DNA of 64,000 bases from Opitutaceae bacterium (GCA_028284385.1 JANQRT010000005.1:15660-79659), one strand, 5' to 3'; shown: positions 33,830 to 60,274, counted from the stretch's first letter. Translations and numbers: made by a program. Notes: generated by a model from the sequence alone, not told the origin.

Positions 33830-34579
33830 CTAGCCGTTTGATATTTCCTGTCGCACGATCGATAAAATCGATACCGCAGCTGTCTCGCATCGCTGTACGA
33901 ACGGTCCAATGGTTACGGGTTTAAAATCGTGTTTGGCGATGGCTTTGTACTCTTCTTCGCTGAAGTCTCCTTCTGGTCCTATTAGACAGGCCACGTTCTT
34001 TGGCTGGAATTGATGTTTGCCTCTGAATTCCGAGAAAACGTCCTTAACCATGCGCGTTTCGGGCTGTAGACTCGCTACGATGTTAAGATCGAAGAAGTCT
34101 CCCAAAGTGTACAGCAACGGTTGAAGGGCTCCGATCTTGGGGAGGAAAGGATTACCGCTTTGCTTGGCTCCCTCGATTGCCGCTGCCTTGAGCTTAGCCA
34201 TTTTATTGGCTTGCCGATCCGTAATGATCTTCAACTCGGTTCGCGAGGTGATTATCGGAAGAATCTGCCATACACCGAGCTCCGTCGCTCTTCGTACGAT
34301 GCTTTCCAAGCCTTTCCCTTTGGGAGCGGCCAGAATCAAGGTGATGTAGCGATCCGGCTTTTCATGAACCTTGTAGGTTTTTGGCGTAAGGACTGCTTGT
34401 TTTCCGTCAGCCACTTGGATTTCACACTGCCATTCCACCCCATCACCATTGAACGCGATTACTTCGTCTCCCTCTCGAGCTCGATTGGTGTTTATCAGGT
34501 GGTGCGACTCTTCGTTGGACAGCTCGATGCGGTCAGTTCTTAGAACGGTGGCGTCGCAGTAGCATCGAAAATCCGACAT
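33830..34579 (-). CDS. rsmE: 16S rRNA (uracil1498-N3)-methyltransferase
   Basis: 249 aa with an N-terminal PUA-like region and the C-terminal SPOUT motif LIGPEGDFSEEE. Confidence 0.85.
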   Translation of the reverse strand: MSDFRCYCDATVLRTDRIELSNEESHHLINTNRAREGDEVIAFNGDGVEWQCEIQVADGKQAVLTPKTYKVHEKPDRYITLILAAPKGKGLESIVRRATELGVWQILPIITSRTELKIITDRQANKMAKLKAAAIEGAKQSGNPFLPKIGALQPLLYTLGDFFDLNIVASLQPETRMVKDVFSEFRGKHQFQPKNVACLIGPEGDFSEEEYKAIAKHDFKPVTIGPFVQRCETAAVSILSIVRQEISNG

Positions 34580-34611
34580 GCCTGTTCCTATGGGGAGTTC
34601 TTCGAATTGAG

Positions 34612-34700
34612 CAAATGAAAAGGCGCCGCTAAGCGGCGCCCTTTCTTACTTATCAAACTACAAACCAGAATTAAGAAAAACTCTAACTCCCTTTTCATTG
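34612..34700 (-). ncRNA. candidate small RNA / leader module 1 (uncharacterised)
   Basis: On the minus strand, TTTGAACGT-N14-CGCCTATCA is followed by about 87 nt. That stretch ends in the conserved GTTTGTAGTTTGATAAGT, then the hairpin GGCGCCGC-TTA-GCGGCGCC, then TTTTCATTT. A paralogous copy lies 180 nt upstream. Confidence 0.35.
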
Positions 34701-34794
34701 TTGATAGGCGCTCTCCTGCCAAAAACGTTCAAAAAAAAGATGAGCCATTCATTTCAATCTCTCAAATCCCTCCGAAATAGGTTGTTCAGCAAAA

Positions 34795-34886
34795 CGAAAA
34801 AAGCGCCGCTAAGCGGCGCTTTTTCGACTTATCAAACTACAAACTAGATACGAAAAATGAACAAAACCCTATTAAATTCCTGTACT
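34795..34886 (-). ncRNA. candidate small RNA module 2 (paralog of module 1)
   Basis: On the minus strand, TTTGAACGT-N14-CGTCTATCA is followed by about 90 nt. That stretch ends in GTTTGTAGTTTGATAAGT, then the hairpin AGCGCCGC-TTA-GCGGCGCT (compensatory change relative to copy 1), then TTTTTCGTTTTG. It contains no ATG-initiated ORF. Confidence 0.35.
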
Positions 34887-35210
34887 GTGATAGACGTAGA
34901 AGGTCTTACCACGTTCAAAGAATTCTTTCTTTTCAGACAGAAAATTTCTCTGACTACCTAATTCGTTGATCACGAATAGATTAGAAATGGGCAGGCGTGA
35001 TTACGTCCTCTCTGCACTAGCTGAGGCGCCTTTTCCTAGAACAACGAAACGCGCCAAAGACATGAAAGAAAAAAATACCAGTCTGAGAGATTTCTATTCA
35101 TGAATCTCGCGTGTTTCGTTGTTTCCAAACAAGAGTCTTCAGCGACTTGAAATTGGCTTGCCAGTTATCACCGCCTTGGCGCATACACCTCTCTCCAAAT
35201 TTCGAAACAA

Positions 35211-35296
35211 GCCCAGGTGGCGGAATTGGTAGACGCGCCTGACTCAAAATCAGGTTTCCACCGGAAGTGAGGGTTCGAGTCCCTCCCTGGGCACCA
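35211..35296 (+). tRNA. tRNA-Leu (anticodon CAA)
   Basis: Hand-folded cloverleaf. Acceptor GCCCAGG/CCTGGGC, anticodon stem CCTGA/TCAGG with loop CTCAAAA, long variable arm, T arm GAGGG-TTCGAGT-CCCTC, and an encoded CCA. Confidence 0.95.
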
Positions 35297-58848: not shown

Positions 58849-59700
58849 TTATAGACCTCCCGACAGGTAAATATCGCCCTCAGGAGCGGGAACGCCACCT
58901 TTCTTTTCCAAGCTGATAGCGAAAGCGACTACGTTGTCGATGGGCTGTCCCGGAGCGAATCGGTATTCGGCGCTGCCAGTCTCATTAACGGAGAAAACGC
59001 CGCCATTGATCGGGTTTGGCGATTGGTCGGATATTACCCACATCTGGTAGTTCTGTGTCATCGAGTCGATCTCTGGCAAATTATAGACACGCACCACACC
59101 CTCGTCTTTCGAGGCATCCCAGATGGCAAATCCGTGATAAAGTTGATCCAGTTCCGAATTCAGAGCGGCTATCTGGATCTGATCCAGCGTTCGTTGACTC
59201 CGAAGATTGGATACAAGTTCTTGAAGTTGACTCCTCTCCAAGCCCAGGTCGGCTAGTTGCTTGGATAGCGTTTCGATCTCCCCGCTTAGTTCCAGACTGG
59301 CCAGATTGACTTCCTCGAGCTGACGGTCGAGGGTCTGGTTTTCTCTCCACTGGACTATAAACAGAATTAGAAAGCAGGCCGCTGCCGCCCATCCCAGAAC
59401 CGATATCATAGGGAAAGAAGCGATTTTTTCGGAGTTCTTTTCTTTGGCTGGGGCGGCTTGTTGTTTCTTTGCTGGTTTGTCAGGCAACGACCTTACTATT
59501 CGGTCTGCCAGTTCATTGTTTGGCTCCTTGATCTCGCTTTGAGACAGAGCCAGATCGCCTAGGGATTCCTCCAGTTCGCCCACTAAGCTAGACAACGCCT
59601 TATCGTTCGCCATCCGCTTCTCGAATGCGGCTGTCTGGCGCTCGTCCAATTCGCCCAGCAAGTAGGCGATCGCTTCTTGTTCGGTTTCGCTATGCGACAT
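58849..59700 (-). CDS. anti-sigma factor (RskA-like, single-pass)
   Basis: Start at MSHSETEQEAIAYLLGELDE overlaps the sigma gene stop by 11 nt (ATGTCGCATAG). It has an N-terminal anti-sigma helix region, one TM segment and a C-terminal RskA-like domain. Confidence 0.7.
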   Translation of the reverse strand: MSHSETEQEAIAYLLGELDERQTAAFEKRMANDKALSSLVGELEESLGDLALSQSEIKEPNNELADRIVRSLPDKPAKKQQAAPAKEKNSEKIASFPMISVLGWAAAACFLILFIVQWRENQTLDRQLEEVNLASLELSGEIETLSKQLADLGLERSQLQELVSNLRSQRTLDQIQIAALNSELDQLYHGFAIWDASKDEGVVRVYNLPEIDSMTQNYQMWVISDQSPNPINGGVFSVNETGSAEYRFAPGQPIDNVVAFAISLEKKGGVPAPEGDIYLSGGL

Positions 59701-60274
59701 GGCTTTTCTCCAATTCCTTTCTAAGACGTGTGATGGCGTAGCGGATACGCGATTTAATGGTGCCAAGAGACTCGCCTAGGTCTTGCGCAATCTGGCTTTG
59801 TGTAAAGCCTTTGAAGTAGGCGAGCTGAATAGCGATTTTCTGATCTTCGGGCAGACTCTCTATGGCCTGCTTTACGGCTTCAGCCCTTTCCTTCGTGACC
59901 AGTTCGTCCAGAGCGGTTTCCTTTTCGGCTGGCTCTAATGAAGGTTTCTCAACTGCGTCGTCCAGAATCGCATTAGCCGATGGCAGACGACGATTGGTTT
60001 TCCGAAGTCTATCTATTGATCGATTTCGAACGATTCGCAGAAGCCATGGGAGCAATTTGGCAGAGTTCTGGCCTAAAGTCTCGACCTTCTCCCACAGGAT
60101 CAAAAAGGCGTCCTGCGTCGCTTCCTCCGCTTCTTCCACATTCTGAAGGAGCTTCATTGCCACGGAGTACACGAATTTTCCGTAGCGGCGATAGACTTCC
60201 TGCAAAGCTTGCTTGTCGCCGTCTCCAATCCGGTCGATCAAGGTGCTGTCAGGCAGTTCATTCGGGTCACTCAT
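59690..60274 (-). CDS. ECF-type RNA polymerase sigma-70 family factor
   Basis: Region 2 (YRRYGKFVYSVAMKLL...EATQDAFLILWEK) and region 4 (AYFKGFTQSQIAQDLGESLGTIKSRI). Start set at MSDPNELPD, an internal Met of the 238-aa ORF. Confidence 0.85.
   Translation of the reverse strand: MSDPNELPDSTLIDRIGDGDKQALQEVYRRYGKFVYSVAMKLLQNVEEAEEATQDAFLILWEKVETLGQNSAKLLPWLLRIVRNRSIDRLRKTNRRLPSANAILDDAVEKPSLEPAEKETALDELVTKERAEAVKQAIESLPEDQKIAIQLAYFKGFTQSQIAQDLGESLGTIKSRIRYAITRLRKELEKSHVA

Follow-up and report, generated by a model that had tools for sequence, protein, structure and literature searches.

The question raised by this 64,000-nt stretch of Opitutaceae bacterium DNA (the window) is what is encoded in the 631-bp gap between rsmE and tRNA-Leu(CAA), which contains no open reading frame (ORF) of 60 or more amino acids. 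Two modules lie in this gap, A (34919-34797) and B (34733-34613), both on the minus strand and with an identical order of parts: first TTTGAACGT-N14-CGYCTATCA, then TCTRGTTTGTAGTTTGATAAGT as the core, and last a GC hairpin followed by a T run. We identify these modules as copies of a predicted, previously undescribed family of ~90-nt small RNAs (sRNAs) that extends across the Opitutales. A joint interpretation, in which an Opitutales family of ~90-nt sRNAs is transcribed from an extracytoplasmic function (ECF) sigma factor promoter, represses a porin without Hfq, and is read through into rsmE, appears to us somewhat likelier to be right than wrong.

An initial annotation of this DNA had described two paralogous modules in an ORF-free gap of about 630 bp, each with a promoter of the form GAAC-N16-CGYC. 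Both descriptions held in our analysis, with GAAC-N16-CGTC in module A and GAAC-N16-CGCC in module B, which is the form expected of ECF promoters. The compensatory G:C to A:T change that the annotation had noted between the hairpins was found at the outer pair, which is A-U versus G-C between the two copies. Although the divergent stretch between CGYCTATCA and the core measured 39 nt in A and 32 nt in B rather than the 55 to 60 nt that had been given, the predicted RNAs, at about 89 and 87 nt, still have the anticipated length of about 90 nt. The composite patterns for the promoter and for the core each occurred exactly twice in the window, against 0.00 expected from 100 shuffles, and the 18-nt core was exact at just the two module sites in the whole 5.39-Mb genome. 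A consensus scan also detected terminator A on the minus strand.

The modules belong to a family that is widespread in one bacterial order. BLAST against relatives revealed a full-length homologue with 85% identity in the same genus, a second relative with both modules at 68%, and a third relative with three tandem copies. Searching the genome and its relatives for the core and the module had been proposed in the initial annotation, and we did so with a covariance model for which 13 aligned modules from 8 genomes served as input. Of 201 Opitutales genomes, 125 had matches (75 of 104 genera), and these extended to genomes of only 0.8-1.0 Mb. The same model matched 36 of the 40 genomes of the nearest relatives (35 of 36 when only high-quality genomes were counted) and 53 of 301 genomes in a phylum-wide sample, with 49 of these 53 in the same order and the family nearly absent from the rest of the phylum. 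Copy number ranged from 1 to 4 per genome, as single modules or tandem sets of 2-4, and some genomes contained a second, unlinked locus. Furthermore, an exact-pattern scan of one genome per species, covering 185,579 species, returned 114 matching stretches. All but one of the 80 listed had Opitutales or Verrucomicrobia labels (Opitutales, Opitutaceae, Puniceicoccaceae, Pelagicoccus, Cerasicoccus, Oceanipulchritudo, Ruficoccus, and Verrucomicrobia), the other being a Thermodesulfobacteriota metagenome-assembled genome; based on these labels, we name the clade as the Opitutales. Among the listed carriers are Pelagicoccus mobilis KCTC 13126, Pelagicoccus sp. SDUM812002, Verrucomicrobiae bacterium DG1235, Cerasicoccus frondis NBRC 105381, and C. 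maritimus NBRC 105382.

We did not find this family among described RNAs. With Rfam 15 at gathering thresholds, an Infernal comparison that had also been suggested in the initial annotation, only two tRNAs were identified in the whole window. In E-value mode, every further match was below its gathering threshold, including RNAI (30.7 versus 47) and GcvB (23.4 versus 42), with others lower. Searches of the literature on sRNAs of Verrucomicrobia or Opitutales and on rsmE-linked sRNAs yielded no relevant description, and we found no Opitutales transcriptome study.

The four matches outside the order retained the promoter boxes with other G/U-rich bodies. Loci L285, L286 (G354), L288 (G348), and L287 (G410), from other orders of the same class, have the boxes TTTGAACG-N15-GTATCTATC, GCATCTATC, or GTGTCTACC ahead of short, terminated, G/U-rich predicted RNAs without the Opitutales core, and the promoter type thus seems older than the Opitutales seed. 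In addition, three loci from one family with genomes of ~0.9 Mb (L267, L269, and L277) have kept the promoter and terminator around a different, shorter body, AAAUGUAUUCCUUUUAUAACCUU. A search of one genome from that family (G027) produced no detectable TorF-type porin homologue.

The pattern of conservation indicates which parts of the module have been under constraint. In the alignment of 13 modules, TTGAACG and GTTTGTAGTTTG were invariant, and RNAalifold recovered the terminator as the sole consensus structure. In a larger alignment of 120 modules, 113 of them distinct, TTGAACG was about 100% conserved, and the terminator was paired in 98.9% of cells, with double-sided changes at 10 of its 11 pairs, compared to 46-67% pairing in slid controls. 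Conservation peaked at TTTGAACG, at CGTCT(A)TC, and at T(C)TAGTTTGTAGTTTG-TAAG, while the body and spacer diverged, and many members contained an extra upstream GTTCAT(A)GTTT block. The core GUUUGUAGUUUG was almost invariant across the family, and the invariant block takes the form of a tandem UAGUUUG UAGUUUG abutting the terminator. In predicted folds, the centroid structure of sRNA-A was the terminator alone with the seed unpaired, whereas a 5' hairpin of sRNA-B pairs the first half of its seed. The terminators have the GC-rich hairpin and U tract of intrinsic terminators, with the hairpin upheld by compensatory changes. The initial annotation had suggested selection on function from the two copies, and the preservation of promoter boxes, seed, and a covarying terminator across an order bears this suggestion out. 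These sequence comparisons support the modules as independent, selected sRNA-type genes.

The family probably resembles envelope-stress sRNAs in function, as its invariant G/U-rich stretch complements the leader of an outer-membrane porin mRNA. When targets were predicted with the core as the seed, as the initial annotation had recommended, the leader of a TorF/Gcw_chp-type porin ranked first. In RNAduplex comparisons of the 22-nt seed with 7,358 start regions, the best partner was the gene at contig C63:30782 (-24.5 kcal/mol), while seven shuffled seeds reached only -20.1 to -22.6 kcal/mol against the same regions. The whole body of sRNA-A is predicted to pair with this leader from -36 to +15, over the start codon (-39.6 kcal/mol, z = -6.0). 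The product of this gene is a secreted protein of 231 amino acids that ends in ...SITYGF and matches Pfam Gcw_chp and the TorF family, indicative of a putative porin. The complementary site was also found in other species. AACTACA was present in the leaders of 9 of 30 porin homologues (nine genomes of eight genera), whereas 2,000 shuffles gave 0.3 on average and never more than 3, and these otherwise unrelated leaders carry (C)AAACTACA(G/A)AC at about -14 to -29, with pairing of the A-to-G variant kept because of G-U wobble. When each genome's own sRNA was compared to its own leader, 10 pairs reached p <= 0.03, and these came from 9 of the 19 genomes; in one of these pairs, the seed is altered to GGUUUGCUGGUUG and the leader to a CAACCAACAAACC repeat. 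Thus, a conserved seed is complementary to the initiation region of an outer-membrane protein, and this complementarity is kept between species. The analogy to envelope-stress RNAs drawn in the initial annotation gains support from these results, with an outer-membrane porin mRNA as the best predicted target and a site conserved across genera.

Evidence for further targets was more limited. Sequences close to the core at other sites of the genome were antisense to 5' leaders, and other high-ranking predicted targets also encode envelope proteins, namely a PDZ lipoprotein, a TonB-dependent receptor, and a glycine-zipper outer-membrane lipoprotein. Upstream of start codons, AACTACA was not enriched relative to its permutations, indicating that the seed complement is not a general signal of 5' untranslated regions, and longer seed-complement words had a small excess upstream of starts (CAAACTACA, 6 of 39). 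We rejected a large regulon called by duplex energy, as the count of strong duplexes equaled that for shuffled seeds. The top target alone stands out, and the porin is the only target that these predictions support well. Comparison of the core by eye with the 16S rRNA region around U1498 revealed no convincing similarity.

These observations suggest a model in which each copy would be transcribed from its own minus-strand promoter of the ECF form, TTGAACG-N15-CG(T/C)CTATC, most likely by the single RpoE/SigW-like ECF sigma factor that is retained even in Opitutales genomes of 0.8-1 Mb, and would end at its own intrinsic terminator. A largely unstructured body would present the almost invariant UAGUUUGUAGUUUG(A/U)UAAG just 5' of the terminator as a seed for Hfq-independent pairing in trans with C/A-rich translation-initiation regions, with the mRNA of the TorF/Gcw_chp-type outer-membrane beta-barrel porin as the prime target. 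The duplex would keep ribosomes off the mRNA and so reduce porin synthesis, by the logic of the sigma-E-dependent MicA and RybB, and read-through from the same promoters past the weak proximal terminator would serve rsmE. By this analogy, the sRNA probably works like the envelope-stress sRNAs of Escherichia coli. Regarding the independence from Hfq, tblastn with E. coli and Bacillus subtilis Hfq gave no match in the genome, and the Hfq model PF17209 detected E. coli, B. subtilis, and other controls and none of 26 Opitutales genomes.

ECF promoters combine an AAC -35 box with a CGT -10 box ~16-17 nt apart, a consensus typical of SigW, SigM, and RpoE-type sigma factors. Among 171 modules, TTGAACG and CGTC were separated by 15 nt in 127 cases and by 16 nt in another 38, and the CGCC variant of module B also occurred in the rsmE-proximal copies of the related genomes G001 and G021. 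The promoters of tRNA genes in the same genome, with a -35 of TTGAC or TTGCC, a weak -10, and a GC-rich discriminator, are unlike the sRNA motif, and a scan of the module region for the sigma-70 consensus identified no promoter. With the sigma factor encoded at 59690-60274, which the initial annotation had named, as the search seed, we singled out a different sigma factor, the ortholog in this genome of the one ECF sigma factor kept in reduced genomes. Its gene lies outside the window, on contig C27, and encodes 209 amino acids; it scored best with RpoE and SigW models, below their equivalog cut-offs. Of 12 reduced genomes that keep the sRNA, ten had only RpoD and one ECF sigma factor, and two had one further sigma-70-family match. 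Across 70 genomes, with orthologs called at E <= 1e-40, the sRNA and the ECF ortholog tended to occur together (38/4 with versus without the ortholog among sRNA-positive genomes, versus 15/13; odds ratio 8.2, Fisher p = 6e-4, uncorrected for phylogeny), and whole genera and families were without both. We place ECF dependence of the sRNA promoter at a little over one half.

Some other matches to promoter elements were recorded in these scans. The motif was upstream of none of 53 sigma-70-family ORFs, and the only recurrent extra match in reduced genomes was coding sequence (LNEALQKLS) within the ECF gene and was discarded as a coincidence. About 30 tRNA genes (for example, at window positions 35150-35210) have a clear -35 (TTGACA or TTGCC) after a T-rich stretch and hardly any TATAAT-like -10. 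Ahead of a GldA/DrrA-type ATP-binding cassette (ABC) ATPase gene, GGAAC-N16-CGTCTATC lies 30 nt before the ATG (contig C54:16731-16762, minus strand); the sister genome retains both boxes around a spacer that has diverged, three other genera have comparable boxes, and the orthologous loci are L321, L323, L327, and L332. This motif is a candidate ECF-dependent promoter and lends indirect support to an ECF sigma factor for the sRNA.

The family is also tightly linked to rsmE. Among 150 modules with enough flanking sequence, 129 (86%; 98 of 117 loci) lay on the same strand within 900 nt upstream of rsmE, and 21 (14%) did not adjoin it. Some copies lie upstream of other genes, and the downstream gene differs in reduced genomes. 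Measured from the T run of the proximal copy, the start of rsmE lay a median of 61 nt and often 38-45 nt away. Because a stretch of this length can seldom accommodate a further promoter, read-through is the most likely route to rsmE expression. In terminators proximal to rsmE, the U tract is typically interrupted, as in CUUUUCUGUUU or CCCUUACUGUUU. At the locus studied here, about 35 nt separate the end of terminator B from the rsmE ATG, as the initial annotation had stated, and this short distance together with its weak, interrupted U tract makes transcription of rsmE by read-through most likely. Thus, rsmE is probably expressed by partial read-through. The initial annotation had posed read-through and independent sRNAs as alternatives; both are probably true, rather than one or the other.

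Within a read-through RNA (34580-34699, minus strand), the GGGAGUU at the 5' end of sRNA-B has a possible pairing partner in AACUCCC, which lies ~15 nt ahead of the rsmE start codon, and a pairing of 6 bp is possible in the sister genome. The pairing might affect rsmE translation.

Table 1. Features of the two modules and of the genes that flank them, in window coordinates.
Feature	Position	Strand	Remarks
rsmE, 16S rRNA m3U1498 methyltransferase	33830-34579	-	Pfam PF04452 and PF20260; TIGR00046 140.8 bits, cut-off 41
Predicted sRNA-B, ~87 nt	34613..34699	-	Order: 5' hairpin, seed, terminator; minimum free energy -31.4 kcal/mol, z -4.8
Terminator B	34613..34645	-	Interrupted U tract TTTTCATTT; likely site of partial read-through into rsmE
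Hairpin B, GGCGCCGC-TTA-GCGGCGCC	34622-34640	-	Followed by TTTTCATTT
Seed/core B, TCTGGTTTGTAGTTTGATAAGT	34648..34669	-	Sequence
Module B downstream promoter box, CGCCTATCA	34702..34710	-	CGCC variant
Module B upstream promoter box, TTTGAACGT	34725..34733	-	Sequence
Predicted sRNA-A, ~89 nt	34797..34885	-	5' end from promoter, 3' end from terminator
Terminator A (intrinsic)	34797..34825	-	13-bp stem AAAAAGCGCCGC-TTA-GCGGCGCTTTTT, TTA loop, six T
Seed/core A, TCTAGTTTGTAGTTTGATAAGT	34827..34848	-	Predicted single-stranded; complements porin leader at contig C63:30747-30764
Module A downstream promoter box, CGTCTATCA	34888..34896	-	CGTC 16 nt past GAAC
Module A upstream promoter box, TTTGAACGT	34911..34919	-	GAAC, ECF-type -35 core
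tRNA-Leu(CAA)	35211-35296	+	Flank of module region

Several results weigh against an ECF-dependent, porin-repressing sRNA. The genome-wide motif search proposed in the initial annotation, performed with a position-weight matrix and regular expressions, found the strict motif at the two modules only, and a pattern scan of the 12 reduced genomes found it nowhere outside the sRNA genes. The motif was not upstream of the candidate ECF sigma gene, and neither a regulon nor autoregulation links the motif to that sigma factor. No sigma ortholog was detected at the threshold given above in four genomes that carry the sRNA, of which one is assembled in a single contig. At the level of the target, 10 of 19 genomes did not have significant pairing to the nearest porin homologue, and strong seed-mRNA duplexes were no more numerous than for shuffled seeds. 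Finally, a purely trans-acting role does not explain the very strong synteny with rsmE. Those results that concern the promoter speak for the main alternative to ECF dependence, in which the same trans-acting sRNA is transcribed by RpoD from a TTGAAC -35 and a TCTATC -10 with 18-nt spacing and has no envelope-stress or ECF specificity, the G after TTGAAC and the CG before TCTATC being a regulator site or discriminator. This alternative accommodates a motif without another instance, the lack of an autoregulated ECF gene, and the sRNA-positive genomes that miss the ECF ortholog, and it draws on tRNA promoters in this genome that combine TTGAC, TTGAA, or TTGCC with a very weak -10 (TCTATG, TTCTAC, CGTCTTAG). 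The housekeeping -10 is so weak here that TTGAAC-N18-TCTATC could be an RpoD promoter. However, AAC-N16-CGT spacing that is near-invariant over an order is typical of ECF promoters, the sigma-70 consensus scan returned nothing in the region, and there are whole genera and families in which neither the sRNA nor the ECF ortholog occurs. AT-rich reduced relatives also have canonical TTGTCA-N17-TATTAT promoters, indicating that RpoD specificity is ordinary there. On balance, we regard transcription by RpoD as possible but unlikely.

The synteny would be accounted for if the module were a cis-acting leader or attenuator of rsmE, in which a factor bound to the UAG-N4-UAG-N4 repeat sets passage through the terminator, as with HutP or TRAP, and the short RNA is a by-product. 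In accord with such a leader, 86% of modules lie directly upstream of rsmE with gaps often too short for a further promoter, the proximal terminators have interrupted U tracts, the invariant tandem UAGUUUG UAGUUUG abuts the terminator, and the ribosome-binding site of rsmE is immediately preceded in the read-through RNA by AACUCCC, with which GGGAGUU of copy B can pair. It offers no reason to expect that complementarity to the porin leader is conserved, and it sits poorly with tandem sets of 2-4 in which every copy has its own promoter and terminator, with the 14% of modules unlinked to rsmE, and with the other downstream gene in reduced genomes. An invariant core is unable to build a conserved antiterminator with terminator stems that are free to vary, and RNAalifold found only the terminator and no conserved alternative pairing. 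Moreover, we identified no candidate for the binding protein, although HutP and TRAP homologues were not searched for. A purely cis-acting attenuator is therefore less likely, and we consider it rather improbable. A dual role, in which the RNA is both a trans-acting porin repressor and an obligatory leader of rsmE, with U1498 methylation gated by a stress promoter and regulated read-through, appears to us similarly doubtful; in this case, a factor bound to the UAGUUUG-UAGUUUG repeat might control read-through. The G/U-rich GUUUG and UAG units, which occur two to three times per RNA and in several tandem copies, could instead titrate an RNA-binding protein without pairing to mRNA, and both the CsrA homologue encoded in the genome and the lack of a general excess of mRNA targets would suit such a sponge. 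CsrA sponges typically have arrays of GGA loops, whereas only two or three short units are present here, and the specific, conserved, and partly covarying complementarity to the porin leader argues for base pairing rather than a sponge, which we consider very unlikely. The least probable of the explanations that we weighed, and one to which we give hardly any credence, is that the modules are not RNA genes and represent DNA-level elements, such as duplicated protein-binding sites or the remnant of a mobile element. On one strand only, compensatory changes preserve an RNA hairpin with a T run after it, the order of promoter, body, and terminator is fixed, and the single-locus, syntenic, and vertical inheritance across an order is not the pattern of a mobile element.

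Two other elements related to the locus or its core were noted. Between module A and tRNA-Leu, window positions 35040-35123 contain an inverted repeat with 27-nt arms that are 81% complementary and 30 nt apart, and these arms are present with small differences in the sister genome. Outside the window, an intergenic sequence on contig C7 (8133-8185) contains a third core-like sequence, TTGTGTAGTTTGATAAGT (16 of 18 positions), without promoter boxes and followed by a 7-bp hairpin (AGAAGCC...GGCTTCT). On its opposite strand, this element is just upstream of GGGAGG-N6-ATG, with no convincing ORF after it. It could be either a decayed third copy or a target site.

The proposed function of the Opitutales RNA can be compared to that of several well-studied sRNAs. 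MicA and RybB of E. coli and Salmonella and VrrA of Vibrio are short, sigma-E-dependent RNAs with an intrinsic terminator that provide porin-lowering feedback. As with MicA and RybB, our predictions for the Opitutales RNA include an ECF-type promoter, an intrinsic terminator, and a conserved seed against the initiation region of an outer-membrane protein, and the role that we propose for it is likewise a feedback on porin synthesis. The resemblance is functional and not homologous. We found no sequence or structural homology, and neither RNA was listed among Rfam matches at E <= 10. In addition, the Opitutales seed is beside the terminator rather than at the 5' end, the copies are in tandem and linked to rsmE in a clade without Hfq, and sigma dependence is only predicted. 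OmrA and OmrB, like PrrF1 and PrrF2, are adjacent duplicated sRNA genes, and OmrA/B repress outer-membrane proteins and TonB-dependent receptors. The Opitutales modules are likewise neighboring paralogues, each with its own promoter and terminator, with conserved ends and a diverged center, and a TonB-dependent receptor leader was among the top predicted targets. They have no homology to OmrA/B, which are OmpR and Hfq dependent, in contrast to the ECF-like promoter and absence of Hfq here. GcvB (RF00022) uses a single-stranded, G/U-rich seed to bind C/A-rich elements that precede start codons. The Opitutales RNA shares a G/U-rich seed with GcvB, which was a sub-threshold Rfam match with the second-lowest E-value and ranked fifth by bit score. 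This match, at 23.4 bits against the gathering threshold of 42, was driven by the terminator and base composition, and size, architecture, promoter, and target class all differ. FoxI and FoxJ of Fusobacterium nucleatum are reported as experimentally verified sigma-E-dependent sRNAs and, as such, are a precedent for sigma-E-type sRNAs arising independently far from proteobacteria (PMC11005410). The Opitutales RNA is unrelated to them in sequence, belongs to another phylum, and is predicted only.

We found no sRNA family described for the Opitutales, nor for the Verrucomicrobia in the literature searched, and these are bacteria without Hfq. The modules represent an RNA conserved across an order, for which the promoter, the seed, and the TorF-type porin as a first target are three predictions open to testing. 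Several cultured strains carry the sRNA, and the covariance model could be added to Rfam. If our interpretation is true, the family would add evidence that sRNAs that depend on alternative sigma factors and repress outer-membrane proteins have evolved independently in distant phyla. It would also open a way to study riboregulation without Hfq and the as yet unexplained linkage to rsmE, which encodes an rRNA methyltransferase. A dual role, if true, would mean that envelope stress is wired directly to a change in the decoding center of the ribosome.

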